Part shown: in pieces, positions 3,532 to 22,809 of the stretch
Position numbering within the stretch: the stretch's first letter is position 1
How the letters are laid out: the number at the start of each line of letters is the position of its first letter
From: Akkermansiaceae bacterium
GTDB taxonomy: Bacteria > Verrucomicrobiota > Verrucomicrobiia > Verrucomicrobiales > Akkermansiaceae
Direction of reading: 5' to 3'
Length of the DNA stretch: 50,980 bases
Assembly: GCA_903875675.1 (NCBI GenBank)
Contig: CAIQXC010000287.1
Location: forward strand, 1-50,980
Made by a program: the position numbers and the translations under genes
The notes under the pieces: generated by a model
Databases searched by the model: none
Seen by the model: only the letters and a program-made list of their open reading frames with translations
Told to the model about the DNA's origin: nothing

Positions 3532-3583
3532 GTCGTCAGTTATTAGTTCTCAGTGATCATCAGTCATTAGTCATCAGTTATGA
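3532..3583 (+). repeat. Degenerate 7-bp tandem repeat (GTCATCA/GTCATTA-like)
   Basis: GTCGTCA GTTATTA GTTCTCA gtg ATCATCA GTCATTA GTCATCA GTTATGA fills the rsgA-DUF1080 intergenic space. Confidence 0.6.
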
Positions 3584-3600
3584 ATTCAGCCACCAACCTC

Positions 3601-4287: not shown

Positions 4288-4308
4288 GCCGTTGCAGTCA
4301 CAGGAGCT

Positions 4309-4383
4309 CCGATTCAGGTTGATACCCGAATTTCAGAAATTCATATCTTTTTCTCTTGCGAGTCCTGAATCGGGTGCTACCGT
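4309..4383 (+). promoter_or_regulatory. Putative promoter/operator of the large operon, with nested inverted repeats
   Basis: TTGCGA (4356-4361)-N16-TACCGT (4378-4383) with an extended TG. 10-bp inverted repeat CCGATTCAGG (4309-4318)/CCTGAATCGG (4364-4373). Palindrome GAATTTC-A-GAAATTC (4328-4342). Confidence 0.5.
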
Positions 4384-4392
4384 CAACATCAA

Positions 4393-6756: not shown

Positions 6757-8263
6757 TCTGCCGCTGCTATGCTCTGGACTACTTCTAATCGCCTTGGCGC
6801 GTGCCGACGACTGGCCACAATGGGGCCGTACGAACGAGCGCAACATGTATTCGCCGGAAACCGGCCTGCCTAGCAGTTTCGATCCTGGCAAATTCAAACT
6901 TGGCACCGAGGAGGTGGACCTGGCGACGACGAAAAACGTCAAGTGGGTGGCCAAGCTCGGATCGCAGAGTTATGGCAACGTGACGGTGGCTGGCGGACGG
7001 GTGTGCGTCGGCACCAATAATGACGCCCCGCGGGACCCGCAGCACCAGGGCGACCGAGGCGTCCTGATGTGCTTTGATGAAAAGTCCGGCGGCTTCCTCT
7101 GGCAGTTGGTCGTGCCCAAACTCGCTTCCGGCAAGGTCAATGACTGGGAGAGCCTCGGCATCCTCTCCTCACCCACCCAAGACGACAAGCACGTCTATCT
7201 GGTGACGAACCGCTGCGAAGTGGTGGCCCTCACGGCCGATGGTCTCGGAAAAGAAAATGTCGGTCCATTCACCGACGAGGCCAAGTACGTGACCGGACCG
7301 GGCAAGCCACCCGGCAAGGTTGGAGCGAAGGATGCCGACATGGCCTGGCGCTACGACATGATCGACGAGTTGGGGGTTTTCCCACACAATGCGTCCAATT
7401 GCAGTCTGCTGATTTTGGACGACGAAATCATCTCGACAACTTCTAACGGCCAGGACTGGTCACATACGAATATTCCATCGCCCAATGCTCCGTCGCTAAT
7501 TGCGCTCGACAAGAAGACCGGCAAATTTCTCGGCGAAGACGATGCACACATGGGCCCGAAGATCTTTCATGGCATCTGGTGCTCTCCGTCGGCGGGCAAG
7601 GTCAATGGCAAAACCCAGGTTTTCTTCGGCGGCCCGGACGGCTCGCTGTACGGCTTTGATCCGAAGCCCGTGAAGGAGGGCGATGACCTCCACTTGAAGC
7701 GTGTTTGGTGGTGCGACGCCAACCCCGCCGGTTACCGGGCTAACAAATATCCGGCTGCCAAAGGTCCGAGTGAGATTAATGCCACACCGGTGTTTTACAA
7801 CAACCGCGTGTACGTCGCCATCGGCCAGGATCCGGAGCACGGCGAGGGTATCGGCAATCTCATTTGCGTGGACCCGACCAAGACCGGGGATATCACCAAG
7901 ACCGGCATCATTTGGTCATATAACAAGATTCACCGCAGCCTTTCCACCTGTGCGATCACACCCGACGGCCTGTTGTTTGTGGGCGACTTCAGCGGCTTTG
8001 TCCATTGCCTGGATGCCGCAACCGGCAAAGTCCACTGGGTTCACGACATGAAAGCGCATATCTGGGGATCGGCGCTGGTGGCCGACGGCAAGGTGTACAT
8101 CGGCACCGAGGATGGCACGCTGGCGGTGTTTGCCGCAACCAAGGAGAAAAAGAAACTGGCTGACATTGATATGGGTGCGCCAGTGTATGCCACCCCAGTT
8201 GTGGCTAACGGCGTCCTTTACATCCAGACCACAACCCATCTTTACGCAATTAGCAACCCATGA
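6749..8263 (+). CDS. Secreted PQQ-like beta-propeller protein
   Basis: ATG 6749 overlaps the previous stop. Signal peptide, then DDWPQWGRTNERNMYSP and blades such as CFDEKSGGFLW, ALDKKTGK and CLDAATGKVHW. Confidence 0.85.
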   Translation: MINLPLLCSGLLLIALARADDWPQWGRTNERNMYSPETGLPSSFDPGKFKLGTEEVDLATTKNVKWVAKLGSQSYGNVTVAGGRVCVGTNNDAPRDPQHQGDRGVLMCFDEKSGGFLWQLVVPKLASGKVNDWESLGILSSPTQDDKHVYLVTNRCEVVALTADGLGKENVGPFTDEAKYVTGPGKPPGKVGAKDADMAWRYDMIDELGVFPHNASNCSLLILDDEIISTTSNGQDWSHTNIPSPNAPSLIALDKKTGKFLGEDDAHMGPKIFHGIWCSPSAGKVNGKTQVFFGGPDGSLYGFDPKPVKEGDDLHLKRVWWCDANPAGYRANKYPAAKGPSEINATPVFYNNRVYVAIGQDPEHGEGIGNLICVDPTKTGDITKTGIIWSYNKIHRSLSTCAITPDGLLFVGDFSGFVHCLDAATGKVHWVHDMKAHIWGSALVADGKVYIGTEDGTLAVFAATKEKKKLADIDMGAPVYATPVVANGVLYIQTTTHLYAISNP

Positions 8264-8481
8264 AGAAAGTCCTCCTCTGCCTGCTGATTGCAGGAGTGTA
8301 CGTGCTCCACCAGGATTTCTGGAACTGGCGCACAGCCCAGCCACTGGTGTTTGGTTTTCTACCCATTGGATTGGCCTACCATGCCGCCTATTCCATTCTG
8401 GCATCGGCCACGATGGCCATCCTCGTTAGTACGGCGTGGCCAAAACATCTCGAAACCACCGAAGGAGCCGAAACCAAGTGA
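8260..8481 (+). CDS. DUF3311 family small membrane protein (symporter accessory subunit)
   Basis: 73 aa with two TM helices and LHQDFWNW...FGFLPIGLAY. Lies immediately upstream of an SSS gene with 4-bp overlaps on both sides. Confidence 0.8.
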   Translation: MKKVLLCLLIAGVYVLHQDFWNWRTAQPLVFGFLPIGLAYHAAYSILASATMAILVSTAWPKHLETTEGAETK

Positions 8482-10013
8482 ATCCTGTTGTAGTAGTCGG
8501 CATCTATCTGGTGATTATTGCTGTTATCGGCAGCGTTGCCTACACCCGTGGCAAGTCAAATACCGAAGACTTCTTTCTCGCGAGCCGCAGTATTGGTGGA
8601 CTGGTGTTTTTTCTATCCATCTTCGCCACCAACATGACTGCCTTTGCCATCCTTGGCAGTTCCGGCCAGGCGTATAGGCAGGGGATTGGCATCTATGGTT
8701 TGATGGCCTCCTCGTCAGGCCTGGTCATCCCTCTGACGATCTTCTTCATCGGCACCCGGCTGTGGGCACTCGGCAAAAAATTCGGTCACCAAACGCAAGT
8801 GGCGTTTTTCCGGGATCGCTGGGAATGCGACTCTATCGGAACTGTCATCTTTGTGCTCAGTGTGGCGATGCTCGTGCCCTACATGATCATCAGTATCATG
8901 GGCGGTGGCCGGGTGCTCTGCGATATCAGCGGCGGCAAGGTGGATTATTGGCTGGGCTGTCTGGTCGTCGTCTTGGTGGTGACCATGAATGTGTTCTTCG
9001 GCGGCATGCGGGGCACGGTGTGGGTGAATATCTTCCAAACCATCCTGTTTTTACTTTTCGGCACGGTCGCGGTGGTGGTCATCAGTCACGCGTTGCCAGG
9101 TGGCTTCGGTGAATACATACACAAGATTGCCGGCAATCCGAAGACATCTTTTCTGCTAACCCGGGAGCGGATGTCGCCGCAGTTTTTCTGGAGTTACACG
9201 CTTATTCCGCTGTCGTCGATCATGTTTCCGCACATGGCCATGATGTGTTTTGCGGCGAAAAAGGTCACCGTATTCAAGCGCACGGTCATTCTCTATCCAC
9301 TTGCCATCATGGCCATCTGGCTGCCTTGCGTCCTGCTAGGTGTGATTGGCACGCAGGCCGCACCTGGCCTGAAGAATCCTGACGGGGTTCTGCTGCATTT
9401 GCTAACCGGCCATGCGCCTATCTGGCTGGCGGGAATTCTTGGTGCGGGCATCATCTCCGCCGTCATGGGCTCAGACACCCATCAGGTGCTTGCCGTGAGC
9501 ACCATGTTCACCAAGGACGTTTTTGCTCATTATGGCGGTGAGAAGCGCTTTGGTGAACGCGGCACGGTTTCATTCGCACGCATCTTCATTGTGTTTGTGA
9601 CGCTGGTGGCCTACGTCGTCGCGCTTAACACCCCAGAAAGTATCTTTGAACTCGCCGTGCGCTTTGCTTTCAGCGGCTTTGCCGCAATGGCCCCGGTGAT
9701 GATTGCCGCGCTGTTTTGGAAGCGCAGCACCAAGTACGGGGCGCTCGCCTCCACGCTATGGGTGGCGGCCTGTCTAGCCGGTATTTGGTACTTGCAACAT
9801 ATATCCGACACCATGCTGCCGAAGCCGGGACAGGCACCGACGGTTATCTTTCCGGCGATCGGGCATTTGTTTGAGCGCACGATCGCCAACGTCACCTGCT
9901 TCGGCTTCCTGCCAGTGGTTCCGATGGTACTCGGCTCGGCGGTCCTGATGATTATCGTATCGCGGTTCACCCCGCAGCCGAGCCTAGCCACTATCAAGAA
10001 ATATTTCCCATGA
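8478..10013 (+). CDS. Sodium:solute symporter (SSS family)
   Basis: EDFFLASRSIG, FATNMTAFAILG, GGMRGTVWVNIFQ and GIISAVMGS motifs, many TM helices. GTG start overlaps the DUF3311 stop (GTGA). Confidence 0.92.
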   Translation: MNPVVVVGIYLVIIAVIGSVAYTRGKSNTEDFFLASRSIGGLVFFLSIFATNMTAFAILGSSGQAYRQGIGIYGLMASSSGLVIPLTIFFIGTRLWALGKKFGHQTQVAFFRDRWECDSIGTVIFVLSVAMLVPYMIISIMGGGRVLCDISGGKVDYWLGCLVVVLVVTMNVFFGGMRGTVWVNIFQTILFLLFGTVAVVVISHALPGGFGEYIHKIAGNPKTSFLLTRERMSPQFFWSYTLIPLSSIMFPHMAMMCFAAKKVTVFKRTVILYPLAIMAIWLPCVLLGVIGTQAAPGLKNPDGVLLHLLTGHAPIWLAGILGAGIISAVMGSDTHQVLAVSTMFTKDVFAHYGGEKRFGERGTVSFARIFIVFVTLVAYVVALNTPESIFELAVRFAFSGFAAMAPVMIAALFWKRSTKYGALASTLWVAACLAGIWYLQHISDTMLPKPGQAPTVIFPAIGHLFERTIANVTCFGFLPVVPMVLGSAVLMIIVSRFTPQPSLATIKKYFP

Positions 10014-11047
10014 TCCTTGACGAATATTTCCGTGGCATCATTGACTGGCATTTCAGTCCCGAGTCCGGTTGCCCGTTCTGGCTCGACTGGGCCAGCCGCA
10101 ACTTTGATCCGCGTGAGGAAGTGAAGACGTTTGCAGACTTGTCGAAGTTTCCGCATTTCCAAGATGAATGGCTGCGCGATCTGCAACCTGAAGTGTGGGT
10201 TCCAGCGGCATTCAGAGGCCAACCATTCAACATCTTTGAAACAGGCGGCACCACCGGTATGCCCAAGCAGCGCATCGGTTGGCATGATTACAAATTCGAC
10301 TACGAAGAGTTCAGCGGAAAGCTCGACGAGGACCATTTCCCGCGCGGCGAGGCATGGCTGATGGTCGGCCCTACCGGCCCGCGCCGCTTGCGCCTGGCCA
10401 TCGAGCACCTGGCAAACTTCCGTGGTAGTTCCTGTTACTTCATCGACCTCGACCCGCGCTGGGTGAAAAAACTCATCGCCGCCAAACAATTCGATCAGGC
10501 CCGGGCTTACATGGACCACGTCGTCGATCAAGCGGTTACGATTCTCAAGCACCGGAAAGTGGCCGGACTGTTTACCACGCCCAAACTCCTGGAAGCCTTG
10601 GCCGAAAAGGTCAATCTCTACCAAGCCGGCGTCCGGGGCGTCTTCTGTGGCGGGACCACCATGGCTCCACAGGCGGTGCGCTTCATCATCGAGGAAGTCC
10701 TCGAAGGCAATATCGGCTTCTATCCAACCTATGGCAATACACTGATGGGCCTGGCCGCCAGCGCCCCACTCCGCCCCGAGGATCATTACTCGATCACCTA
10801 CTTCGCACCGCAGCCACGCGCCGTGCTGCGCGTGGTCGATCCACTGCAAACCACCGAGACGGTGGGCTACGGTGAGTGGGGCCGGGTCGAGCTAACGACC
10901 TTGACCAAGGAGTTTTTCATGCCGCGGTTTTTGGAGCGCGACGAAGCCATCCGGCGCGAGCCACGTGCGCCGTACACTTGGGATGGCGTCGCAGAGGTTC
11001 GCCCTCTCGGCTCGATGGAAAAACTCATTGTTGAAGGAGTTTACTAA
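10010..11047 (+). CDS. Short adenylate-forming enzyme, EhpF / LuxE (acyl-protein synthetase)-like
   Basis: WHFSPESGCPFW N-terminus typical of EhpF-like proteins, P-loop ETGGTTGMPK, PTYGNT and FLERD. At 345 aa it appears to lack the ANL C-terminal subdomain. Confidence 0.7.
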   Translation: MILDEYFRGIIDWHFSPESGCPFWLDWASRNFDPREEVKTFADLSKFPHFQDEWLRDLQPEVWVPAAFRGQPFNIFETGGTTGMPKQRIGWHDYKFDYEEFSGKLDEDHFPRGEAWLMVGPTGPRRLRLAIEHLANFRGSSCYFIDLDPRWVKKLIAAKQFDQARAYMDHVVDQAVTILKHRKVAGLFTTPKLLEALAEKVNLYQAGVRGVFCGGTTMAPQAVRFIIEEVLEGNIGFYPTYGNTLMGLAASAPLRPEDHYSITYFAPQPRAVLRVVDPLQTTETVGYGEWGRVELTTLTKEFFMPRFLERDEAIRREPRAPYTWDGVAEVRPLGSMEKLIVEGVY

Positions 11048-12399
11048 TGGCCCAGCATATTTCAGCGCTGCGACTGGGCAGGCCTTATGAAAGTCTCGAT
11101 CGAATCGAGTTGAAGGACGGCCTTGGCACCGTTAGCCAGGTGAATGCAGGGATGATCCGCAAAGATCTTAAGCAAATCGGCGCAGCACACGCCGCCCTTA
11201 AAAAGTTTACCGTCGCCCAGCGCGTCGATATGTGTGCTCTCGCCGGTGATATATTCCTAAATGCTAACGACCCGAAAACCTATGTGGAGACGCTCTCGGC
11301 CACCAGTGGTTTGCCCCACTCGTTGGTGAGGCGCAACATGCATCGGATCCATGCGGTGCTTGCAAACATGGATGAAGTGCTGCGCGGCCTGACGCGTGGC
11401 CTGGACCTCGACGATGACACGAGCCCGTACAGTTTTTTTCCGGTGACCCACAGCTTGGGGTTGGTGATGCCTAGCAATTCGCCTGCTGTCAATTCGTTGT
11501 GGTTGCCGGCCATCGCACTGGGCATTCCGGTGGTTATCAAACCCGGCCGTGACGAACCATGGACCCCTTACCGGCTGATTCAATCGTTCATCGCTGCCGG
11601 GATGCCGTCGGCTGCATTCGGGTTCTATCCGACGGATCATGAGGGCGCGGATGCTATTTTAAGGTTGTGCGGCAGGTCCTTGGTTTTTGGCGATCAAAGC
11701 ATCAGTGACAAATATGCAGGCAACCCATCGATCCAAGTCCACGGGCCGGGTCACAGCAAAGTCCTCATCGGCGCGGATCTCATCGGGCGCTGGCCCGAAT
11801 TTATCGATGTGATCGTAGAGTCAATTGCCGCCAATGGCGGCCGCAGCTGCCTTTGCGCCTCCACCATCGTCGTCCCATCCCATGCTGACGAAATCGCCGA
11901 TGCTCTGGCACGACGACTCGCGCCTATCGCCCCCTTGCCTGCTGCCGATCCCGCCGCCAGCCTGTCGGCTTTTGCCAACCCGCAGATGGCCGATGCGATC
12001 GATGCAACCCTTGAGCAGAGCCTCACAGGTGCGGTGGACGTCACTGCCGCCTATCGGCACGGCCCACGCAAGGGGCTCTTCGATGGCGCAACCTATCTGC
12101 GTCCGACCATCGTCCGTTGTCCCTCGTTCGAACATCCATTGGCAAACCGCGAGTTCTTGTTCCCGTATGCCAGCGTCATCGAAATGCCGCAGGAGAAGAT
12201 GCTCGAACAAATCGGACCATCGCTCGTCGTTACCGCCATCACCAGCGACGAGGGTTGGATCCGGGAACTCATGGAATTCACCCCCATCGATCGGCTGAAT
12301 ATCGGCCCGATTCCTACTCTAACGATATCATGGGATCAGCCGCATGAGGGCAACTTGTTTGAGTTTCTGTACAAGCGCCGGGCCTTTCAACGCGTATGA
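11047..12399 (+). CDS. Aldehyde dehydrogenase-fold protein, EhpG / LuxC-like acyl reductase
   Basis: MPSNSP (PWNFP-equivalent), IKPG, catalytic Cys in NGGRSCLCAS and REFLFP. HGPGHSK occupies the position of the LELGGK motif. Confidence 0.8.
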   Translation: MAQHISALRLGRPYESLDRIELKDGLGTVSQVNAGMIRKDLKQIGAAHAALKKFTVAQRVDMCALAGDIFLNANDPKTYVETLSATSGLPHSLVRRNMHRIHAVLANMDEVLRGLTRGLDLDDDTSPYSFFPVTHSLGLVMPSNSPAVNSLWLPAIALGIPVVIKPGRDEPWTPYRLIQSFIAAGMPSAAFGFYPTDHEGADAILRLCGRSLVFGDQSISDKYAGNPSIQVHGPGHSKVLIGADLIGRWPEFIDVIVESIAANGGRSCLCASTIVVPSHADEIADALARRLAPIAPLPAADPAASLSAFANPQMADAIDATLEQSLTGAVDVTAAYRHGPRKGLFDGATYLRPTIVRCPSFEHPLANREFLFPYASVIEMPQEKMLEQIGPSLVVTAITSDEGWIRELMEFTPIDRLNIGPIPTLTISWDQPHEGNLFEFLYKRRAFQRV

Positions 12400-13481
12400 A
12401 CTTCGACTGGCAAGCTAACACCCGAATCGTCTTCGGTGCCAACAGCGTCGATCGAGTCGGTGAACTTGTACGCGAACTCGGTGGCACCAAGGTGTTGCTG
12501 GTCACGGATCCCGGCATCGTAGAGGCTGGCCACGCCGCTCGCGTGTTAGATCTCTTGCCAAACGCCATTATGTACGAGCAGGTTCGTGCCAACCCAACCA
12601 CCCGTGATGTCGATGAGTGTGCCGCGTTTGCCCGCTCCACAGGCTTGGATCTGTTGGTGGCCATCGGTGGCGGCAGCAGCCTGGATACTGCCAAGGGCGC
12701 AAATTTTCTTCTAACCAACGGCGGTCGGATGCAGGATTACTGGGGCGTCGGCAAGGCAACAAAAGCGATGCTGCCCTTGATTGCCATACCAACCACTGCC
12801 GGGACCGGCAGCGAATGCCAGTCGTTTGCCCTGATCGCCGATGAACAGACGCACCAGAAAATGGCCTGTGGCGACTCGAAGGCAGCGGCCCGGGTGGCGA
12901 TTCTCGATCCGACGCTGACGCTGACGCAACCGCGGCATGTCACTGCCTGCACTGGCTTGGATGCGTTGGCCCATGCGGTGGAGACATGGGCCACGACCCG
13001 GCGCAGCGAATTGTCAGCGATGTTCAGTCGAGAGGCATACCGGCTTATCACATCCAATCTAACGCAGGTGCTGGATCAGCCGCTGGATCTATCGGCCCGC
13101 TCGGCAATGCAACTCGGCGCGGCCCTTGCGGGCGTGGCCATCGAGAACAGCATGCTTGGAGCGGCTCACAGCGCGGCCAATCCGCTCACCGCCCATTTCG
13201 GCATCGTCCACGGCCACGCAGTCGGCATGATGTTGCCGCATGTGGTTCGATATAACTCCTCTGCCGGGGATTTTTACGCCGATCTTGATCCGGACCTCGT
13301 CACTCGCCTGACTCAGCTCTTGGCCTCCACCCAACTCCCTACGCGCTTGTCCGATTGCGGCGTGCCCGAATCATCAATCCCGATGCTGGCCGAGGAGGCA
13401 GCGCGGCAGTGGACTGCCCAGTTCAACCCGCGACCGGTGAGAGTAGCGGACTTTGTGAAACTATACGAATATTGTCTATGA
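12396..13481 (+). CDS. Iron-containing alcohol dehydrogenase
   Basis: GGGSSLDTAKG, IPTTAGTGSE, GLDALAHAVE, GAAHSAANP and HGHAVG metal/NAD motifs. Confidence 0.95.
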   Translation: MNFDWQANTRIVFGANSVDRVGELVRELGGTKVLLVTDPGIVEAGHAARVLDLLPNAIMYEQVRANPTTRDVDECAAFARSTGLDLLVAIGGGSSLDTAKGANFLLTNGGRMQDYWGVGKATKAMLPLIAIPTTAGTGSECQSFALIADEQTHQKMACGDSKAAARVAILDPTLTLTQPRHVTACTGLDALAHAVETWATTRRSELSAMFSREAYRLITSNLTQVLDQPLDLSARSAMQLGAALAGVAIENSMLGAAHSAANPLTAHFGIVHGHAVGMMLPHVVRYNSSAGDFYADLDPDLVTRLTQLLASTQLPTRLSDCGVPESSIPMLAEEAARQWTAQFNPRPVRVADFVKLYEYCL

Positions 13482-14800
13482 ACGACCTAACGACAGCCCA
13501 GCCTAAACAAACCCGACCAGGCAACTACTTCGTCGCCAACTATCCGCCGTTCTCGTTCTGGAATCACGAGCAACTCAGCGAGGTGCAGGCGGCGCTGGAT
13601 CGTCCACCGGTCGCAGGAAATTCGTTAGGAATGTATGTGCACATTCCGTTTTGCCGCAAGCGCTGCCACTTTTGCTACTTCAAAGTGTACACCGATCAAA
13701 ATGCGGCGCGTGTGCAACAGTATATCGATGCGGCGGTAGCAGAGTTGGAGAGCTACGTCCTCAAGCCGTTCATTGGCGGCCGATTGCCCGAGTTTATCTA
13801 TTTTGGCGGCGGCACGCCGTCGTATTTGTCGGTCAAACAGCTGGAGAATCTCACCTCACGACTCAAGGCACTGTTGCCTTGGGATGCTGTCAAGGAGGTC
13901 GCTTTTGAATGTGAGCCAGGCACCCTTAGCGAGGCCAAACTCGAAGCGATTCGCGACATGGGAGTGACCCGCTTGAGCCTCGGCGTGGAGAATTTTGACG
14001 ATCACATCCTTGAGATCAACGGCCGGGCCCATCATTCCCAGGAAATTGCACGGGCCTACGGCTGGGCTCGTTCGTTAGGTTTTGACCAGATCAACATTGA
14101 CCTCATTGCCGGCATGGTTGAGGAGACTGATGCGAATTGGGTGAAGTGCGTTGAGCGGACCATCGAAATGTCGCCGGAGAGTGTGACTATCTATCAGATG
14201 GAGATTCCATACAACACGACCATTTACAAAGAGATGAAGGCCGACGGCAAGCTGGTGGCGCCGGTTGCTGACTGGGAGACGAAGCGCGGATGGGTGGCTT
14301 ATGCCTTTGCCGAGTTGGAGAAAGCCGGTTATACCATCGCGAGTGCCTACACGGCGGTGAAAAACCCGGCGCACACCAAGTTTCTCTACCGTGACAGGTT
14401 GTGGGAAGGCGCGGACTTGCTGCCGATCGGAGTGGCGTCATTTGGTCACATCAATGGCGTGCATTTTCAGAATGAACACGACATAGTACCGTACCTTGAC
14501 CAGGTGTCGCGCGGCGAGTTGCCGCTGTGGCGCGCGCTGGCCCCCAACGCCGAGGAGCGTCTGATCCGTGAGATGATCCTCCAAATGAAGCTCGGACGTC
14601 TGAGCCGGAAATACTTCCAAGAGAAGTTTGGGGTGGATATTGCCGAACGTTTTGCCGCTCCGCTGGGGCAATTGGCTGCCGAGGGATTTCTAGTCATCGA
14701 CGGCGACACGATTGGTTATTCCCGCCAGGGCTTGCTACAAGTTGATACCTTGCTCCACGACTTTTTCCTACCAGAACATCGCGATGCTCGCTACGCCTGA
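13478..14800 (+). CDS. HemN-like radical SAM enzyme (probably not a true coproporphyrinogen dehydrogenase)
   Basis: YVHIPFCRKRCHFCYF (CxxxCxxC), FGGGTPS, RLSLGVENF and NIDLIAG. ATG 13478 overlaps the ADH stop. Confidence 0.85.
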   Translation: MNDLTTAQPKQTRPGNYFVANYPPFSFWNHEQLSEVQAALDRPPVAGNSLGMYVHIPFCRKRCHFCYFKVYTDQNAARVQQYIDAAVAELESYVLKPFIGGRLPEFIYFGGGTPSYLSVKQLENLTSRLKALLPWDAVKEVAFECEPGTLSEAKLEAIRDMGVTRLSLGVENFDDHILEINGRAHHSQEIARAYGWARSLGFDQINIDLIAGMVEETDANWVKCVERTIEMSPESVTIYQMEIPYNTTIYKEMKADGKLVAPVADWETKRGWVAYAFAELEKAGYTIASAYTAVKNPAHTKFLYRDRLWEGADLLPIGVASFGHINGVHFQNEHDIVPYLDQVSRGELPLWRALAPNAEERLIREMILQMKLGRLSRKYFQEKFGVDIAERFAAPLGQLAAEGFLVIDGDTIGYSRQGLLQVDTLLHDFFLPEHRDARYA

Positions 14801-15386
14801 TATATCATCCCTTTGTTGCGGTGACTTCTGCCGAAAGCCCGCTGGCGGTTCCAGCGGGACAAAATGCGGATTGTGTCCGCTAGCCCGCTCTTACAGTGCG
14901 GTGGCGCAAGATATGCCTGCTGTTTGGGAGGTCGCTGCCTCTGATATTCCGCAGCCACAGCGGGACTTGTTAGCTCACAACGGCGACATGACCACAAAGC
15001 TGGAAGTCTTTCATGGTGATCACTCTCATTTGCTGCTATTGCGCAGCACGACGGACGGTGATATCTATCAACGTGAGGTCGTTCTGGTTTTAAATTCCTC
15101 TGGACAGCATGTTGAATTTGGCGCCATCACGATTCATCTCGATCGTTTGCCGCCGCTGCTGAGACGGGATATCATTCAAGCCGAGTTGCCCTTTGGCACC
15201 CTGCTTCACCTGCATCGCTTCGCATTCCGCAGCCGGCCGAAGTCCTTCATCTGCGTCGAGCCCGACGCGGTCATTAGCCGCGCGCTGGCACTTGAGCAGC
15301 CCGGCCAATTGTACGGCCGCTGCAATGCGCTGCTCACCCCCTCAGGCGAGGTGCTCGCCGATATTGTCGAAATTCTACCCCTATGA
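14784..15386 (+). CDS. Chorismate lyase (UbiC/UTRA)-fold protein
   Basis: LLAHNGDMTTKLE, YQREVVL, ELPFGTLL, YGRCNAL and IVEILP correspond in order to UbiC SMTKRFE, REILL, PLGRYL, GRRS and TELFLP. Confidence 0.65.
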   Translation: MLATPDISSLCCGDFCRKPAGGSSGTKCGLCPLARSYSAVAQDMPAVWEVAASDIPQPQRDLLAHNGDMTTKLEVFHGDHSHLLLLRSTTDGDIYQREVVLVLNSSGQHVEFGAITIHLDRLPPLLRRDIIQAELPFGTLLHLHRFAFRSRPKSFICVEPDAVISRALALEQPGQLYGRCNALLTPSGEVLADIVEILPL

Positions 15387-16645
15387 AAAAGAACTATGAT
15401 GTCATCGTAATCGGCGGAGGCCCTGCGGGGTCGACCGCTGCCGCTGTGCTGGCAATGAAAGGCCGGAGTGTTTTGCTGTTGGAGAAAGAGAAGTTTCCTC
15501 GCTATCACATTGGTGAGTCGCTTATTCCCTACACGTATTTCACGCTTGAGCGGCTTGGGATGCTGGACAAGCTCCAAAAAAGCCACTTTGTTAGGAAATA
15601 CAGTGTGCAATTTGTGCGGCAGGCTGGAGACGTATCATCGCCATTTTATTTCACGCAGAATTGGGATCATCCGTCGTCGAGCACATGGCAGGTGGTGCGC
15701 AGTGAGTTTGACGAGATGTTGTTGAACAACGCCCGTGAAAAAGGCGTCGAGGCTTTGGAAGAAATGACGGTGAAGGAACCAATTCGCGAGAACGGCAGTG
15801 TCGTCGGCGTCCGCGGGATCGATCAGCAAGGCCGAGAGTTTGAGGTGCACGCGCCAGTGACCATTGACGCCAGCGGGCGTGACGGCTTCACCCAGGTGAA
15901 GAACGGCTGGCGGATTCGCGATCCAAAGCTCAACAAGATTGCGGTGTGGACCTACTATCAGGGAGCACTGCGCGATCCCGGGATTGATGAAGGAGCCACC
16001 ACCGTTGCCTATCTGCCGGGCAAGGGTTGGTTCTGGTATATCCCATGGCCTAACGACATGGTGAGTGTTGGAGCCGTGGCTGAGAGTTCCTATCTGTATC
16101 GGGATCATGTTCGTGATCCCGAGCAAGTGTTCCAGCGCGAGGTGGAAAATAACCTCTGGATCAAGCAACACCTCGCCCCAGGCAAGGTGGCGGCCCCGTA
16201 TCGGGCGACCAGTGAGTATTCGTTTCGCTCGAAACATTGCGCCATGAACGGTCTGGTGCTGGTCGGCGACGCGTTCGCTTTTCTTGACCCGGTGTTTTCA
16301 TCGGGGGTGATGTTGGCCTTGCGCAGTGGCGAGTTGGCTGGCGATGCCGTTGACGCCGCGCTGAGTGCCGGGGACTATTCCGCAGCGATGTTTGCCGACT
16401 ACGGCAACACACTCTGCTACGGCATCGAGAGCATGCGCAAGCTCGTCTATGCGTTTTATGATCCGAACTTCCGCTTCAAGGAACTCTTCAACGCCTATCC
16501 GCACCTCCACAGCCGGCTGACCGACTGTCTAACCGGTGATCTGTTCACTGACTTTGACGAACTCTTCAGCCGCGTCGCGGAATTCGCCGATGTTCCCGCA
16601 CCGGTCACTCACGGCCAACCTCTGATGGAAACCGATGGCATTTGA
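15383..16645 (+). CDS. Flavin-dependent halogenase (PltA/CndH-like, acting on thioester-tethered substrates)
   Basis: GGGPAG, FPRYHIGES, candidate catalytic Lys72 in FVRKYS, VRSEFDEML, WFWYIP (WxWxIP) and GDAFAFLDPVFSSGV. Confidence 0.75.
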   Translation: MKKNYDVIVIGGGPAGSTAAAVLAMKGRSVLLLEKEKFPRYHIGESLIPYTYFTLERLGMLDKLQKSHFVRKYSVQFVRQAGDVSSPFYFTQNWDHPSSSTWQVVRSEFDEMLLNNAREKGVEALEEMTVKEPIRENGSVVGVRGIDQQGREFEVHAPVTIDASGRDGFTQVKNGWRIRDPKLNKIAVWTYYQGALRDPGIDEGATTVAYLPGKGWFWYIPWPNDMVSVGAVAESSYLYRDHVRDPEQVFQREVENNLWIKQHLAPGKVAAPYRATSEYSFRSKHCAMNGLVLVGDAFAFLDPVFSSGVMLALRSGELAGDAVDAALSAGDYSAAMFADYGNTLCYGIESMRKLVYAFYDPNFRFKELFNAYPHLHSRLTDCLTGDLFTDFDELFSRVAEFADVPAPVTHGQPLMETDGI

Positions 16646-17096
16646 ATATATACTAACGCGATCGGTTGAGTTTTCCGATACCGATATGGCCGGGATCATG
16701 CATTTCTCTAACTTCTTCCGCTTCATGGAAGCTACCGAGCACGCATTTTACCGCTCCCTAGGCATCGAGGTGCATCCCGCGTCGGGTGTTGGCAAGGTCG
16801 GCTGGCCGCGGGTACATGCCAGTTGCGATTACAAACATCCGTTGCGCTTTGAGGAGAGCGTTGATATCCAACTTCTGGTGCGGGAGATCCGCAGCAAGTC
16901 GCTGTCTTACACATTTATCTTCCGTACCCAGCATGACGGGCGCTCCATTGAAGTGGCCCGCGGCAGTCTTGTCGCAGTGGCCATCGGCATGGACCCGCTC
17001 AATCAGACGATGAAAGCTGTTGCCATTCCCCAACAGATCCGCGCCAAGCTGGAAGTGGCACCGCCCGAATATTTCCAACCCCAAACCACCGCATGA
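16635..17096 (+). CDS. Acyl-CoA thioesterase, 4-hydroxybenzoyl-CoA thioesterase/YbgC hotdog family
   Basis: VEFSDTDMAGIMHFSNFFRFME and CDYKHPLRFEE motifs. Confidence 0.9.
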   Translation: MAFEYILTRSVEFSDTDMAGIMHFSNFFRFMEATEHAFYRSLGIEVHPASGVGKVGWPRVHASCDYKHPLRFEESVDIQLLVREIRSKSLSYTFIFRTQHDGRSIEVARGSLVAVAIGMDPLNQTMKAVAIPQQIRAKLEVAPPEYFQPQTTA

Positions 17097-17641
17097 TGAT
17101 AGCTACTGATACGAACCAACCAGGCATGACCTGGCTCGCATTCGCCCTGATGACAGTCGTAAGCTGGGGGCTCTATGGAATTTTCCTGCACTCCGGGCAA
17201 GCGGGCATGGGAGATCCTGTGCATGGCCGCTACAAGGCGTTCTTGTTTGTCGGGCTGGCCTATTTTCTAACAGCCGTACTCGCACCGCTGGCAATTCTGG
17301 TAGTCAATGGTGCCGGTTGGAGGTTTCCGCTAGCTGGTATGGGTTGGTCGCTTTTGGCGGGCATTGTGGGGGCCGTTGGCGCGTTCTGCGTGCTGCTTGC
17401 ATTTGCTGCCAAAGGCCAGCCAAGTGTGGTCATGACCCTGGTGTTCGGCGGCGCTCCTGTCGTCAATGCCCTTGTCGCCGTGCTGATGCACCCGCCAGAA
17501 GGCGGCTTGGGGGCTATTCCCAAACCTTTCTACCTTGGCCTGCTGCTTGCCGTTGCAGGCGGGGGATTGGTCACTTTCTACAAGCCGGCTCCGCCCAAAC
17601 CCCAGCCTGCAGCCATCGTAAACCAAGGGCCGCCACCATGA
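17093..17641 (+). CDS. Small integral membrane protein (about 5 TM, DMT/EamA half-transporter-like)
   Basis: Five hydrophobic segments, SWGLYG motif, and ATGA overlaps on both sides. Confidence 0.65.
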   Translation: MMIATDTNQPGMTWLAFALMTVVSWGLYGIFLHSGQAGMGDPVHGRYKAFLFVGLAYFLTAVLAPLAILVVNGAGWRFPLAGMGWSLLAGIVGAVGAFCVLLAFAAKGQPSVVMTLVFGGAPVVNALVAVLMHPPEGGLGAIPKPFYLGLLLAVAGGGLVTFYKPAPPKPQPAAIVNQGPPP

Positions 17642-18903
17642 CTGGTACCGTGCAACTTCGGAAGCTGAACCGTTTATTGGCCGCGTTATCCCCGGACAAT
17701 CGCTTCTACGCAGGGAAGTTGCACAGTGCCGGATTTGCAAACGGGGCCGCCAGCATCGCCGAGTTTTTCGAGCGCATGCCCCTAACGACAAAGGCCGAGA
17801 TTGTCGCCGACCAGCTTGCACATCCACCGTACGGCACCAATCTAACGTACCCGCCGGATCGCTACACCCGCTTTACCCAAACCAGCGGCACCAGCGGCAT
17901 GCCGCTGCGCTGGCTTGATACACCCGATAGCTGGAGCTGGATGGTCGATTGCTGGACCGAGGTATTGCGTGCTGCTGGCGTTAGACCTGGCGAGCGTGTG
18001 TATTTCGCGTTTTCCTTCGGGCCATTCCTCGGGTTTTGGCTGGCCTTTGAGGCGGCCCAGCGGCTCGGCTGCCTGTGCCTCCCCGGGGGTGGACTCAGCA
18101 GTGCCGCCCGGCTGCAGGCGATCCTCGACAATCAAGTCGATCACCTCTGTTGCACCCCTACCTATGCTCTGCGACTCGGCCATTTCGCCCGGCAAAGCGA
18201 TCACGATCTAACGAAAATAAATATCCGCAGCCTGATCGTTGCAGGAGAGCCCGGTGGCAGCGTGCCGGCAACCCGCAGCCGTATTGAGGATTTGTGGGGC
18301 GGCGCGCGGGTGTTTGATCATCATGGCATGACCGAGATCGGGCCAGTGACTTACGAGGTTGCGCCAGGGATGCTCGCCATTCTTGACTCCGACTACCTTG
18401 CCGAGGTGATCAACCCGGCTGCGGATGGCACGGGAGAACTGGTGCTAACCAACCTTGGCCGCATCGGTTCCCCCTTGCTTCGATACCGGACCGGGGACTT
18501 GGTCAAACCTCTGAGGCGCGACGGGCATACGCTGCTCGAAGGCGGGATCCGCGGCCGCGTTGACGACATGGTCATCGTGCGCGGCACTAACGTCTATCCG
18601 ACCGCAATCGAGCAAATCCTGCGCTCCTGTCCTCACGTCGCCGAGTACCGCGTCGCGGTGCGGGAGGCCGCAGCCATGACCGAGCTGGAGATTACCTTGG
18701 AGCCAACACTGGATTGCCTTGACGCCGGGGCGATGGCAGATAAGCTAGCTGGCGAACTGCAAACTGTGCTGGCATTACGGATTCCCGTGCTGCTCGCCGC
18801 ACCGGGTTCGTTGCCACGTTTCGAATTCAAATCCCAGCGCTGGCAGCGTTTTCCTGATTGCCGCGATCAAACGAGCTGTGCCGATTGTGATGGCAACTGT
18901 TAG
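17638..18903 (+). CDS. Phenylacetate-CoA ligase (PaaK)-family aryl-CoA ligase
   Basis: PLTTKAE, QTSGTSGMP, CTPTYAL, AGEPG, HHGMTEIG, LRYRTGDL, GRVDDMVIVRGTNVYP and LPRFEFKSQR. ATG at 17638. Confidence 0.9.
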   Translation: MTGTVQLRKLNRLLAALSPDNRFYAGKLHSAGFANGAASIAEFFERMPLTTKAEIVADQLAHPPYGTNLTYPPDRYTRFTQTSGTSGMPLRWLDTPDSWSWMVDCWTEVLRAAGVRPGERVYFAFSFGPFLGFWLAFEAAQRLGCLCLPGGGLSSAARLQAILDNQVDHLCCTPTYALRLGHFARQSDHDLTKINIRSLIVAGEPGGSVPATRSRIEDLWGGARVFDHHGMTEIGPVTYEVAPGMLAILDSDYLAEVINPAADGTGELVLTNLGRIGSPLLRYRTGDLVKPLRRDGHTLLEGGIRGRVDDMVIVRGTNVYPTAIEQILRSCPHVAEYRVAVREAAAMTELEITLEPTLDCLDAGAMADKLAGELQTVLALRIPVLLAAPGSLPRFEFKSQRWQRFPDCRDQTSCADCDGNC

Positions 18904-18940
18904 CTACAACAAAACGAACCACGAAAAACAAGCGACGATC

Positions 18941-20134
18941 ATGAAAACACTCATTCCCTGGTTGATTCTCAGTGCCTGCTGCGCCCAAGCCGCCGATTGG
19001 CCGCAATGGCGGGGCCCTAACCGCGACGGTATTTCGACCGAGACCGACTGGACGAGCCAGTGGGGGGCGGACGCACCCAAGCAGCTTTTCAAGCTCAACG
19101 TCGGGATCGGTTGTTCCGCCGTGGCGGTGAGTAAAGGACGCTTATACACGATGGGCAACGCGAACAATTCCGACACGGTGCTGTGCCTCGATGCGGCCAC
19201 TGGCAAGCCGATTTGGAAACAGTCGTATGCCTGTCCGCTGGATCCACACATGTTTGAAGGCGGCCCGGGAGCGACGCCGACCGTGGACGGTGACCGGGTG
19301 TACACGCTGAGCCGGGCAGGACATCTGCATTGTCTCGATGCAGCGAGCGGCAAGGTCGTGTGGATGAAACATCTGGTGAAGGATTTGGGCGGCAAGGTGC
19401 CGACCTGGGGTTACGCCGGGTCACCACTGGTGCTGGAAAAACGGGTGATTGTCGATGTCGGAGCCCCGGGGGCAGCCACCGTGGCCTTGGACAAGACGAG
19501 CGGTGAAGTGGCCTGGAAGAGTGGCGACGAAGGGGCTGGCTACGGAGCGCCGCTGGCGTTTGAGCAGGGCGGCAAACGCTTGCTCGCGCTTTTCGACGGG
19601 TACGGCCTGGTGCTGCGCGAAGCTGATAGCGGCAAGCCGCTGGCACGCCAAGAGTGGAAGACCAACTATGAGATTAACGCCTCCACCCCGATTGTCAGCG
19701 GAGACAAGATATTTGTTTCCAGTGGATATGGCAAAGGGGCGGCGCTATTTGAATTCAGCGGCACGGAGTTGAAGTACGTCTGGCAGACCAAGAAAATGCG
19801 CAACCATTTCAACAGTTGCGTGCTTTGGAAGGGGTTCTTGTATGGGTTCGATGAAAGCAAGCTCACTTGTCTGGACTTCGCCACGGGCGATGTGAAGTGG
19901 TCGCAGGATGACCTTGGCAAAGGCTCCTTGATGATCGCCGATGGCAAACTTATCATCCAGTCCGAGACCGGGGACCTGGTCGTCGCCGACGCCTCGCCTC
20001 TTGCCTTCAAGGAATTGGCCCGCGCCAAGGTGCTCGAAAAACGCTGCTGGGTCGTGCCCGTTCTGGCTAACGGCCGCCTCTATTGCAAAAATAATATCGG
20101 CGACCTCGTCGCTCTGGCTCTCACCAAGCCATAG
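18941..20134 (+). CDS. Secreted PQQ-like beta-propeller protein
   Basis: Signal peptide, then ADWPQWRGPNRDG and blades CLDAATGKPIW, CLDAASGKVVW and ALDKTSGEVAW. ATG at 18941. Confidence 0.88.
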   Translation: MKTLIPWLILSACCAQAADWPQWRGPNRDGISTETDWTSQWGADAPKQLFKLNVGIGCSAVAVSKGRLYTMGNANNSDTVLCLDAATGKPIWKQSYACPLDPHMFEGGPGATPTVDGDRVYTLSRAGHLHCLDAASGKVVWMKHLVKDLGGKVPTWGYAGSPLVLEKRVIVDVGAPGAATVALDKTSGEVAWKSGDEGAGYGAPLAFEQGGKRLLALFDGYGLVLREADSGKPLARQEWKTNYEINASTPIVSGDKIFVSSGYGKGAALFEFSGTELKYVWQTKKMRNHFNSCVLWKGFLYGFDESKLTCLDFATGDVKWSQDDLGKGSLMIADGKLIIQSETGDLVVADASPLAFKELARAKVLEKRCWVVPVLANGRLYCKNNIGDLVALALTKP

Positions 20135-20242
20135 TAATCTAACGATCAAGGCGATTCGAAGCGCTGCTCGGGCACCGCCCGTCGCAGGTGCCGCCATGTG
20201 TAGAGTTACATCCGAAGGGCCGATCCATTTTCTGGATCCATC

Positions 20243-21517
20243 ATGAATCCAACCGCCATCGAAACCCACACCAAACTCGTTCTGCTCCAATGGATGATCA
20301 TCATAGGAGCGGCGTGGCTGTTTGGTCGGTTAGGGAAAAGGTTTGGACAACCGCTTGCAGTTGGGGAAATCACCGCAGGTATCGTACTCGGTCCTTCGGC
20401 CCTAGGCTTGATCTGGCCTGCGGGTTGGCCGCTTCTGTTTCCAAAAGAGACCCACGAATCCCTGCATTTGTTAGGGAAGCTCGGGCTGATTCTGCTGCTG
20501 TTTCAAGTTGGGATGGAGTTTGATTACGGGCATCTGCGTTCCCGCTCCAAGACCGTCACCGCCGTCTCGCTGGCGGGCATTGCCTTTCCGTTCCTTTGCG
20601 GTCTGGCCATCGGACCGTGGCTGCATCGGCACTTCGCCCCCGACCTACCAAAGTTCGGCTTCCAACTCTTTCTATGCATCGCGCTGTCTATCACCGCGTT
20701 GCCGGTCATGGGCCGCATGCTCCTCGAAATGAAGCTCGAGCGTTCCGTTATTGGCGTGATGAGCATCAGCGCGGCGGCCATTGATGACGTGATAGGCTGG
20801 ATGCTGCTCGCACTGGCCACCGCACTGGTCACTTCAGGATTCGACGGCTGGGGGCTGGCCCGACAAGTCCTCAGCGTACTGGTCTTGTTTTTCCTACAGC
20901 AAAAACTTATCGGCCCGTTGCTGTGCCGCGCATGGCGCAAGAGTTCGGTGCGCTACCCACCCGGCCACATGTCCGCCTCATTCCTCACGCTGCTGCTGAT
21001 CGTAATGATGGGCAGTTGTATTCTTAGCAACTGGTTAGGTGTGTTCGCGGTTCTTGGGGCGTTCCTGCTCGGGGTTGCGGTGCACGGGCAGCGCGACCTC
21101 GTCAAGGCATGGCGCGAACGTTTCGCGGATCTTGTCGTCGTCGCCATGGTGCCGATCTTTTTCACGATGACGGGATTGAACACCGATGTTGGCACGCTCA
21201 CCACTCCAGGGGCTTTGCTGGGATGCGGAGTAGTGCTGCTGGCTGCCGTCGCCGGCAAGCTGGGCGGTTGCTATCTCGCTGCGAGGCTGACCGGTCAGCC
21301 CAGGCGGGAAGCTGCCTGCATCGCAACCCTGATGAACACCCGGGCACTCATGGCACTGGTGGCAATCAACATCGGGCTAGACCTGGGACTACTCAACCGC
21401 GAGATTTTCACCATGCTCGTGATCATGGCCCTGTTGACCACTGCCATGACCGGACCGATGTTGCGCCGGTTGCTGCCTCAGCAATTCTCTATAACTCCGC
21501 TTGGCGGCTTGTCTTGA
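20243..21517 (+). CDS. Cation:proton antiporter (CPA2/Kef-type membrane domain)
   Basis: GQPLAVGEITAGIVLGPS, LSITALPV, AAAIDDVIGW, GKLGG and MNTRALMAL motifs. Confidence 0.9.
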   Translation: MNPTAIETHTKLVLLQWMIIIGAAWLFGRLGKRFGQPLAVGEITAGIVLGPSALGLIWPAGWPLLFPKETHESLHLLGKLGLILLLFQVGMEFDYGHLRSRSKTVTAVSLAGIAFPFLCGLAIGPWLHRHFAPDLPKFGFQLFLCIALSITALPVMGRMLLEMKLERSVIGVMSISAAAIDDVIGWMLLALATALVTSGFDGWGLARQVLSVLVLFFLQQKLIGPLLCRAWRKSSVRYPPGHMSASFLTLLLIVMMGSCILSNWLGVFAVLGAFLLGVAVHGQRDLVKAWRERFADLVVVAMVPIFFTMTGLNTDVGTLTTPGALLGCGVVLLAAVAGKLGGCYLAARLTGQPRREAACIATLMNTRALMALVAINIGLDLGLLNREIFTMLVIMALLTTAMTGPMLRRLLPQQFSITPLGGLS

Positions 21518-21555
21518 CCCCGATCCAAATTATCACCACAACCACAACAACGAAT

Positions 21556-22809
21556 ATGAACATAAAACCTGCTCTGCTCGCACTCATTTGCGTCCTTTCC
21601 ATCACGATGAGCCCGCCCACCCGGGCCGAGGATTGGCCTCAGTGGCGCGGCATCAACCGGGATGGCAAGTCATCTGAAACCGGACTGCTGAAGAGTTGGC
21701 CGGAGGGGGGACCCAAGCTGGTTTGGACGGCTCGCGAACTCGGGGGAGGCTATTCCACTCCGTCCGTGGCCGACGGCAGCATTTATGGCATGGGTTACCG
21801 CAGCGAGGAAGAAGTCGTGTGGGCTCTCGACGCCAAGACCGGCAAGGAAGTTTGGAGCACCCCCACGGCAGCCGCTAACCGCAAGATGGGATATCCCGAG
21901 GGGCCGCGCTGCACCCCGACGGTGGATGGGGAACGGCTCTTCACGCTGGGAGCCGGCGGCAATCTGGTGGCCCTCGATCGAAAATCCGGCAAGGTGCTTT
22001 GGCACAAGGAACTTGTCGATGATTTCGGCGGAAAAATGATGTCTGGTTGGGGATACTCAGAGTCGCCATGGGTCGATGGAGATCGGCTGGTTTGCACGCC
22101 TGGCGGAAGTAAGGGAACCATGTTAGCCCTCAATAAACTCACCGGTGAAAAACTCTGGCAGACCACCGACATCACCGATAACGCGGCTTATTCTTCGATT
22201 TTGCTAACAACCATCGCGGGCACCCGGCAATACGTTCAACTCACTGACGCCCACGTCTTCGGCGTGGCTCCAGAGACGGGCGCGGTGTTGTGGAAAGCCC
22301 CGCGTGCGGGCCGCACCGCCGTCATTACGACGCCGATCGTAGCTGGGGACATGGTGTATGTGACCTCCGGTTATGGGGTTGGCTGCAATGCATTCAAAGT
22401 GACCAGCGACGGGTCCAAGTTTAGTGCCGAGGAGATTTACGCCAACAAGGTCATGAAAAACCATCACGGCGGCGTCGTTCTCGTGGGCGATCATCTCTAT
22501 GGCCATTCCGACGCCAGCGGCTGGACATGCCAAAACCTCAAAACCGGCGAAGAGGTCTGGCAGGAGAAATCCAAGCTGGGCAAGGGCGCCATCGCTTATG
22601 CCGACGAACGGCTGTATTGCCGGTTCGAGTCCGAGGAAGGAACCCTTGCCCTGATCGAGGCCACTCCCGAGGGCTATCGCGAGCACGGCAGGTTCGACCA
22701 ACCCGAACGTAGCAAAAAGAATAGTTGGCCTCACCCGGTCATCACCGGCGGCCGTCTCTACATCCGCGATCAAAATATCCTCCTCTGCTACGACGTCAAA
22801 GCGCCCTGA
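21556..22809 (+). CDS. Secreted PQQ-like beta-propeller protein
   Basis: Signal peptide, then EDWPQWRGINRDG, blades ALDAKTGKEVW and ALDRKSGKVLW, and the C-terminal WPHPVITGGRLYIRD. ATG at 21556. Confidence 0.88.
   Translation: MNIKPALLALICVLSITMSPPTRAEDWPQWRGINRDGKSSETGLLKSWPEGGPKLVWTARELGGGYSTPSVADGSIYGMGYRSEEEVVWALDAKTGKEVWSTPTAAANRKMGYPEGPRCTPTVDGERLFTLGAGGNLVALDRKSGKVLWHKELVDDFGGKMMSGWGYSESPWVDGDRLVCTPGGSKGTMLALNKLTGEKLWQTTDITDNAAYSSILLTTIAGTRQYVQLTDAHVFGVAPETGAVLWKAPRAGRTAVITTPIVAGDMVYVTSGYGVGCNAFKVTSDGSKFSAEEIYANKVMKNHHGGVVLVGDHLYGHSDASGWTCQNLKTGEEVWQEKSKLGKGAIAYADERLYCRFESEEGTLALIEATPEGYREHGRFDQPERSKKNSWPHPVITGGRLYIRDQNILLCYDVKAP

Follow-up and report, generated by a model that had tools for sequence, protein, structure and literature searches.

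A chorismate-lyase-like gene beside a flavin-dependent halogenase gene is described for baaA/baaB of Planctomycetales strain 10988 (3,5-dibromo-p-anisic acid) and for Bmp6/Bmp5; both pairs are proposed to give halogenated 4-hydroxybenzoate, and the assignment of the baa product is genetically unproven (bioRxiv 10.1101/723874). In a survey of flavin-dependent halogenases, PltA, Mpy16, Bmp2, and CndH are listed as carrier dependent, ChlB4 is also listed as acting on a tethered substrate, and CmlS is proposed to act on a coenzyme A (CoA) thioester, with malonyl-CoA as its listed substrate (PMC8407142), whereas FasV chlorinates a free, late-stage substrate (PMC11420778). Here we describe a lyase-halogenase gene pair in an Akkermansiaceae bacterium (genome G000). 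The stretch analyzed, hereafter the window, is 50,980 nucleotides long (GenBank assembly GCA_903875675.1, contig CAIQXC010000287.1).

A preliminary description of this DNA had taken four genes, for a chorismate lyase, a flavin halogenase, a thioesterase, and an aryl-CoA ligase, as a CoA-tethered aromatic halogenation module. The four open reading frames (ORFs) indeed exist on the + strand with overlapping stop and start codons, and all of the quoted halogenase motifs were found. A stand-alone four-gene halophenol module, however, is ruled out by gene neighborhoods and co-occurrence, which place these genes inside a much larger operon: a co-directional run of about 19 kb on the + strand (3580-22809) with the halogenase arm in its middle and a fifth gene, for a DMT/EamA-like membrane protein, between the thioesterase and ligase genes. 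The operon is part of a widespread orphan pathway of known enzyme kinds that is inherited as a set across Verrucomicrobiota.

Joint inheritance and gene neighborhoods

Co-occurrence was scored in 61 related genomes, G000 included, of which 21 fall below our quality bar; absence is to be read as “not found.” The lyase-fold gene, the halogenase orthologue (cut-off, at least 47% identity; 10 further genomes hold only paralogues of 34 to 39%), and the ligase gene all occur in the same 26 of the 61 genomes, often unlinked. The thioesterase orthologue (E < 1e-30) is found in these 26 and in G044, and the EhpF-like gene is found in these 26 and, as a fragment at a contig edge, in G011. Among the 26 are six nearly identical genus-mates.

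Two blocks recur among the loci, [radical SAM-lyase-(halogenase-GT4)] and [thioesterase-DMT-ligase-ABC-MacB]. The radical SAM gene is present in 19 of 25 lyase loci and the halogenase gene in 12; within these 12, a GT4 gene comes next in 11, the thioesterase gene is present in 6, and the ligase gene in 3. Ligase loci (20 in all) carry the DMT gene in 14 cases, the thioesterase gene in 11, and a MacB/FtsX permease gene in 9. G061 carries the complete system as a one-piece operon (L201). In the window, the halogenase and thioesterase genes are adjacent because GT4 is absent between them. A propeller-GT4-Fe-S gene group is found on contig C778 of G000, and ATP-binding cassette (ABC)/MacB pieces are found on C557 and C729; these are exactly the genes missing from the operon of the window. 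The G000 GT4 gene (L077:952-2481) carries about 55 extra in-frame residues that 17 relatives do not have, an insertion that may be a small repeat element within the gene. Elsewhere, a cytochrome P450 gene and an HlyIII-type membrane gene follow GT4 in two genus-mates (L015 and L017), and several relatives (L015, L020, L023, L024, and L025) carry small gene pairs of the toxin-antitoxin type within or next to the operon.

The pathway extends beyond the family. Of 24 genomes sampled in the order outside the family, 19 have it at 50 to 80% identity, and the EhpF-like marker occurs in at least 600 genome stretches, 62 to 84% conserved across the phylum. Given this breadth, the halogenase pathway has the look of core physiology and not of a rare antibiotic cluster; in that case, its carriers would be an unrecognized source of organohalogens. 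Named loci were gathered with the EhpF-like gene as the marker, and 80 of them were compared; exported propeller 1 is a conserved partner of that gene. For propeller 2, the Atlas clusters are drawn from Verrucomicrobiota and Planctomycetota, and the clusters of two operon proteins are rich in planctomycetes.

The system has two tiers. The propeller family and GT4 (with an invariant CGxC) occur in exactly the same 30 of the 61 genomes, namely, the 26 and G019, G031, G036, and G044. In a draw of 141 genomes from the phylum, the halogenase orthologue was found in 3 and GT4 in 13. A lipoprotein propeller is present in 9 of 10 GT4-only genomes versus 1 of 11 GT4-negative controls (a partial match), and MacB is present in five of five GT4-positive and none of five GT4-negative genomes tested, lying adjacent to GT4 in 6 of 10 GT4-only loci. 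No radical SAM orthologue was found in the 10 GT4-only genomes. Propeller 1 and the EhpF-like gene were found in none of five GT4-only genomes, in searches for these two genes that had no positive control. NuoEF and an Fe-S/GltD-like oxidoreductase appear in 3 of 10 GT4-only loci. Because GT4, the lipoprotein propeller, and MacB persist without the halogenase arm (14 GT4-positive genomes retain propeller and GT4 genes but do not have this halogenase), they make up the core; at least two front ends exist, one being the halogenase arm. This nested pattern offers a testable handle on the function of the many PQQ-like propellers of Planctomycetes-Verrucomicrobia-Chlamydiae (PVC) bacteria. In L202, L203, L204, and L183 to L185, which have no halogenase arm, GT4 and the lipoprotein propeller adjoin NuoEF-like and/or 2Fe-2S/GltD-like oxidoreductase genes; ferredoxin and membrane 4Fe-4S genes are present in two of these loci.

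In G000 the arm was likely gained laterally, and we claim no donor. In an EhpF tree of 28 rows, in which long branches are present, the window sequence is placed amid other lineages of Verrucomicrobiota, and the approximately unbiased test rejects its grouping with genus-mates (p-AU 0.029). The flanking RsgA is 72 to 76% identical to that of three genus-mates, so a misbinned contig is unlikely, whereas operon proteins are 38 to 63% identical. Comparison of the insertion site with the loci of three relatives was uninformative, as rsgA alone is shared. On the tree, records titled Bifidobacterium, Akkermansia muciniphila, and Saccharimonadales (L096, L097, L106, L111, and L148) stand oddly among environmental verrucomicrobial sequences and may be mislabeled.

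Halogenase, lyase-fold protein, and possible tether

Flavin-dependent halogenases are defined by the motifs GxGxxG, WxWxIP, and Fx.Px.Sx.G (PMC8407142). The protein encoded at 15383, which scores 112 bits against PF04820 (Trp_halogenase), carries them as GGGPAG (residues 11 to 16), WFWYIP (216 to 221), and FLDPVFSSG (300 to 308). In an alignment of the window protein and 23 orthologues, K72, W216, F217, W218, I220, P221, and D302 to S306 are invariant in 24 of 24 sequences. By sequence comparison, K72 aligns with the catalytic Lys of PltA and CndH. FasV is the top match in both sequence and structure; the structure ranking continues with PltA, CndH, Bmp2, ChlB4, and Mpy16 (E 1e-36 to 6e-32 for the six), well ahead of geranylgeranyl reductases (5e-23). 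Profile comparison gives E 2e-84 for halogenases versus 3e-28 for geranylgeranyl reductases and reaches the C-terminal region (positions 6 to 409 in the match to PltA and 6 to 411 in that to Mpy16). On these rankings of sequence, profile, and Foldseek matches, which served for the comparison with geranylgeranyl reductases and hydroxylases proposed in the preliminary description, the flavoenzyme is assigned to the flavin-dependent halogenases, as that description had it, and identity as a geranylgeranyl reductase or monooxygenase is rejected.

In 9 of 16 loci, the halogenase orthologue has a CPA2 antiporter gene next to it. The C-1027 plasmid cluster likewise pairs an antiporter with its halogenase, and the window antiporter is 34% identical to that one; the arrangement fits true halogenation. 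In L068 and L070, one or two halogenase-like paralogues of more distant relationship cluster with the halogenase orthologue (L068 also has the antiporter). In L065, L066, and L072, the halogenase or the antiporter-halogenase pair has an NMT1-type ABC importer immediately upstream.

The 14784 protein matches no Pfam or NCBIfam family, and the Pfam Chor_lyase cut-off is not reached (best E 0.085; 5/99 family members). It has 115 relatives among 378 candidates, some of them named chorismate-pyruvate lyase by JGI. Its predicted structure (pLDDT 89, built on 99 sequences) retrieves, in Foldseek order, AF1396/DUF98 (E 8e-9), UTRA domains, and Escherichia coli UbiC (1fw9; E 7e-4), with TM scores of 0.63/0.78 to AF1396 and 0.49/0.58 to 1fw9. 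The contacts of UbiC with 4-hydroxybenzoate are Met34, Arg76, Leu114, and Glu155 (PMC7879144). In the hhalign alignment the first three fall on M69, R97, and F137, and Glu155 corresponds to E196 both by register, just beyond the aligned end, and via AF1396; M69, R97, and E196 do not vary in any of the 99 sequences. The protein therefore models on the chorismate-lyase/DUF98 fold and appears to retain product-binding residues of UbiC, in line with the earlier UbiC-like call. Its ATG at 14784 is credible, as the Cys-rich N terminus is shared by 6 of 26 aligned rows; this extension (window positions 14784 to 14880), which has C12, C16, C28, and C31 in the closest relatives, is poorly modeled and is a possible metal site. 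An Azospirillum relative (30% identical) lies upstream of a short-chain dehydrogenase/reductase (SDR) gene, pabB, and a class IV aminotransferase gene (L217:13914-17531), which is a second chorismate-linked setting for the family.

The family calls made earlier for the other two enzymes also stand. The thioesterase has a hot-dog fold with D17 (the Asp of DTDxxG), and its best match, 5wh9, is named 4-hydroxybenzoyl-CoA thioesterase; the family also includes YbgC and 1,4-dihydroxy-2-naphthoyl (DHNA)-CoA hydrolases. The ligase carries the P-loop and C-terminal Lys of the PaaK clade and invariant FxFGPFLGFW and DHHG motifs, scores below the curated PaaK cut-offs (147 versus 646 to 700 bits), and finds its best sequence match in 2-hydroxyisobutyryl-CoA ligase. 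The specificity pair of the latter is Tyr164/Ser239 (PMC8388817), at whose positions the window ligase has Phe130/Ala202.

No acyl carrier protein (ACP) or flavin reductase family was found among 22 window proteins scanned with Pfam, and tblastn of the window with the genome’s own ACP and flavin reductase gave no match. The same was true of 192 loci plus the window searched with the genome’s ACP, two peptidyl carrier protein (PCP) domains, and the flavin reductase, although this search is insensitive as a carrier test, having missed two ACPs later found by Pfam beside a paralogue. Pfam scanning covered 49 of 64 candidate small ORFs, the other 15 being repeats of already annotated families; none of the 49 is an ACP beside a halogenase orthologue, and a cognate carrier protein in the cluster was rejected for lack of a PP-binding match there. 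The two ACPs among the 49 flank a 34%-identical halogenase paralogue that also has an SDR-like gene nearby (L192:16842-19498), which is a separate carrier-protein cluster. G000 holds one free-standing ACP (C227) and one PF01613 flavin reductase (C702), and PF03358 has no match in the genome. The earlier claims that the operon has no ACP and that the flavin reductase, absent from the window, would be supplied in trans are thus supported, and CoA would be a plausible tether for halogenation.

The remaining genes of the operon are listed in Table 1. The DUF1080 gene is the probable first gene. The EhpF/GriC-type enzyme is the predicted first half of a two-protein carboxylate reductase; the aldehyde dehydrogenase (ALDH)-fold protein, which retains the catalytic Cys and has His in place of the general-base Glu in an alignment to ALDHs, is predicted to be of the GriD/EhpG type, EhpG being presumably the second protein of the EhpF-type aryl-carboxylate reductase. 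The radical SAM enzyme has a CRKRCHFC motif and a mean column identity of 69% across 12 sequences. Promoter and terminator scans were near shuffle level (11 versus 7.7 and 31 versus 20.1).

Table 1. Genes of the operon, with positions in the window
Positions	Strand	Feature	Support
3580..4287	+	DUF1080/3-keto-disaccharide-hydrolase-domain protein, signal-peptide-like N terminus	PF06439 E 5e-38
4393..6756	+	Exported PQQ-like beta-propeller 1	PF13360; in 43/80 named EhpF-like loci
6749..8263	+	Exported PQQ-like beta-propeller 2	PF13360; in 48/80 named EhpF-like loci
8260..8481	+	DUF3311 small membrane protein, symporter partner	PF11755 E 2e-9
8436..10013	+	Sodium:solute symporter (longest ORF; later true start probable)	PF00474 E 2e-43
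10010..11047	+	EhpF/GriC-type adenylating enzyme	PDB EhpF E 1.6e-43, full length
11047..12399	+	ALDH-fold protein	PF00171; alignment to ALDHs
12396..13481	+	Iron-containing alcohol dehydrogenase (Fe-ADH)	PF00465 E 2e-48
13478..14800	+	HemN-like (class C) radical SAM enzyme	PF04055 + PF06969; PDB HemN, NocN
14784..15386	+	Chorismate-lyase (UbiC/DUF98)-fold protein, Cys-rich N-terminal extension	Model, Foldseek, hhalign
15383..16645	+	Flavin-dependent halogenase, FasV/PltA/CndH group	PDB sequence and structure matches; invariant motifs
16635..17096	+	Hot-dog-fold acyl-CoA thioesterase, 4HBT-I/YbgC type, Asp17	PF13279/PF03061; PDB 5wh9 E 4e-13
17093..17641	+	DMT/EamA-like small membrane protein	Atlas features and structure; adjoins ligase in 14/20 loci
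17638..18903	+	PaaK-clade acyl/aryl-CoA ligase	PDB 2-hydroxyisobutyryl-CoA synthetase E 3e-50, PaaK E 9e-34
18878..20134	+	Exported PQQ-like beta-propeller 3 (start probably at 18941)	PF13360
20243..21517	+	CPA2 cation/proton antiporter	PF00999; adjoins halogenase orthologue in 9/16 loci
21109..22809	+	Exported PQQ-like beta-propeller 4 (longest ORF; actual start ~21556)	PF13360

Proposed pathway and its alternatives

Genes, families, linkage, and joint inheritance are observed, and all of the reaction steps that follow are proposals. We tentatively favor a reading in which the four genes are an arm of a conserved verrucomicrobial system of about 17 genes and produce a halogenated acid of the 4-hydroxybenzoate type, which other parts of the system would go on to reduce, glycosylate, and export. 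Judging from its fold and retained residues, the UbiC-fold protein would convert chorismate to 4-hydroxybenzoate. The PaaK-clade ligase would load the acid onto CoA, the halogenase, supplied with FADH2 by a reductase in trans, would modify the ring, the class C radical SAM enzyme would probably modify it as well, and the thioesterase would free the modified acid. GriC/GriD reduce 3-amino-4-hydroxybenzoate to the aldehyde (PMC10179220); on this precedent, the EhpF-like and ALDH-fold pair may reduce the free acid to an aldehyde, which the Fe-ADH would take to the benzyl alcohol, and the adjacent symporter would also permit import of the acid. On the grounds of gene linkage, the CxxC-type GT4 (contig C778 in G000) would add a sugar, and the MacB/FtsX ABC transporter would carry the product to the envelope for use or display by the exported propellers.

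Several observations weigh against this pathway. FasV, the closest solved relative of the halogenase, uses a free, late-stage substrate. The genes linked to that of the halogenase are GT4 and the lyase-fold gene, the ligase gene being present in only 3 of the 12 lyase-halogenase loci. The ligase itself scores best against an aliphatic-acid ligase, and PaaK-clade enzymes accept varied acids (PMC8388817). For the lyase-fold protein, GntR/UTRA ligand-binding domains rank above 1fw9 in Foldseek, and the hhalign match to E. coli UbiC is weak (E 6e-4; probability, 28%). The antiporter is present in 18 of 26 genomes with the system and in 11 of 35 without it, which rules it out as a strict system member. 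The count of 26 in 61 overstates the number of independent events, because it includes the six near-identical genus-mates and kin are not independent. Finally, the order of the pathway steps is a guess.

The main rival keeps the same pathway but puts halogenation on the free acid, aldehyde, alcohol, or glycoside, with the CoA ligase/thioesterase pair serving the radical SAM step or controlling the acid pool. We regard it as doubtful but serious: the FasV precedent, GT4 as the halogenase’s steady neighbor (11 of 12 loci), and the tendency of the thioesterase and DMT genes to travel with the ligase gene (11 and 14 of 20 loci) speak for it, whereas PltA, Mpy16, Bmp2, ChlB4, and CndH are listed on tethered substrates (PMC8407142) and the C-terminal region of the halogenase matches PltA and Mpy16. 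A tether on protein rather than CoA, either an acyl thioester on the Cys of the ALDH-fold reductase or a housekeeping ACP in trans, would suit a halogenase that resembles carrier-dependent enzymes, an ALDH-fold protein that has the Cys but no general-base Glu, and the single free-standing ACP of the genome; with no ACP beside any orthologue among the 49 small ORFs scanned and with a CoA ligase and a CoA-type thioesterase co-inherited with the halogenase, we consider it very unlikely.

Other alternatives concern the enzymes themselves. That the flavoenzyme is instead a hydroxylase, or a QhpG/LodB-like maturase building a protein-derived cofactor in the propellers, seems improbable: four propeller genes share the operon, and the system resembles core metabolism, in which halogenation is unusual, but the hidden Markov model matches to QhpG (121 bits) and LodB (92 bits) are weaker than that to CmlS (188 bits), WxWxIP, a motif of the FxDPxxSxG type, and the catalytic Lys are all conserved, and the 14 GT4-positive genomes have propeller and GT4 genes without the flavoenzyme. 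A different acid scaffold, with the UbiC-fold protein cleaving a chorismate relative (e.g., aminodeoxychorismate) or doing no more than bind the radical SAM enzyme’s ligand, likewise seems improbable. The radical SAM gene is the most constant neighbor of the lyase gene (19 of 25 loci, versus 12 of 25 for the halogenase), the Azospirillum relative adjoins pabB and a class IV aminotransferase gene, and UTRA binding domains have the same fold; yet the Arg/Glu/Met set of UbiC is retained, AF1396/DUF98 is the best fold match, and no pabB-like gene occurs in the window operon.

A more specific extension of the favored halogenated-acid pathway, which we think unlikely as it stands, is that its product, a halogenated aryl glycoside, acts as a redox cofactor or prosthetic group in the expanded PQQ-like propeller family of PVC bacteria. 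A universal core for maturation and delivery would then consist of GT4, the lipoprotein propeller, and the MacB exporter. The halogenase arm would be one source of the aglycone, halogenated as a CoA thioester without a carrier protein, and genomes that do not have the arm would scavenge it or use the NuoEF/Fe-S front end. On this reading, halogenation would belong to the core metabolism of the envelope in soil and water bacteria that are abundant. A PltA-type halogenase acting on aryl-CoA without a carrier protein would, if real, be a convenient biocatalyst.

Comparison with described systems

In a literature search that covered subscription papers thinly, we found no functional description of the system, including any verrucomicrobial halogenase with chorismate and radical SAM genes; the available text of two further sources (bioRxiv 10.64898/2026.07.10.737718 and PMC11848864) held nothing bearing on it. 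The closest systems are baaA/baaB, compared below, and the Halo_AMP pseudoclass of sponge-microbiome clusters, the latter defined by a Trp_halogenase and an AMP-binding gene and including PaaK-like (BagE/YtkN) ligases, radical SAM enzymes, glycosyltransferases (GTs), thioesterases, and frequent PQQ-like domains (bioRxiv 10.64898/2026.08.03.742642). The window follows this rule, with PF04820 at 15383 and PF00501 at 10010 and 17638. However, as presented in the available text, Halo_AMP is a search rule without a product rather than a pathway, its CC A has a P450 core gene, and the terms chorismate, Verrucomicrob-, and Planctomyc- are absent from the main text (bioRxiv 10.64898/2026.08.03.742642).

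The analogy to the bmp cluster drawn in the preliminary description proved loose, and a Bmp5-type single-component brominase was rejected. By its published motif description, Bmp5 lacks WxWxIP (PMC8407142), which the window halogenase has, and BaaB is about 44% similar to Bmp5 (bioRxiv 10.1101/723874), whereas the window enzyme ranks with PltA and FasV. As described in the available text, baa is a two-gene locus with a distant methyltransferase gene, for which no ligase, thioesterase, radical SAM enzyme, reductase, GT4, or propellers are named (bioRxiv 10.1101/723874).

With FasV, PltA, CndH, Bmp2, ChlB4, Mpy16, and CmlS, the window halogenase shares the fold, the position of the catalytic Lys, and the three motifs, at 27 to 34% identity to phenol/pyrrole halogenases in structure alignments. 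Unlike the FasV/PltA/CndH group, its orthologues group into a separate clade, with no polyketide synthase (PKS)/nonribosomal peptide synthetase (NRPS) or ACP genes nearby. The window likewise resembles GriC/GriD (grixazone) and EhpF/EhpG in having a full-length EhpF match followed by an ALDH-fold gene, but here, unlike in those systems, the pair is coupled to an Fe-ADH, a symporter, propellers, and the halogenase arm.

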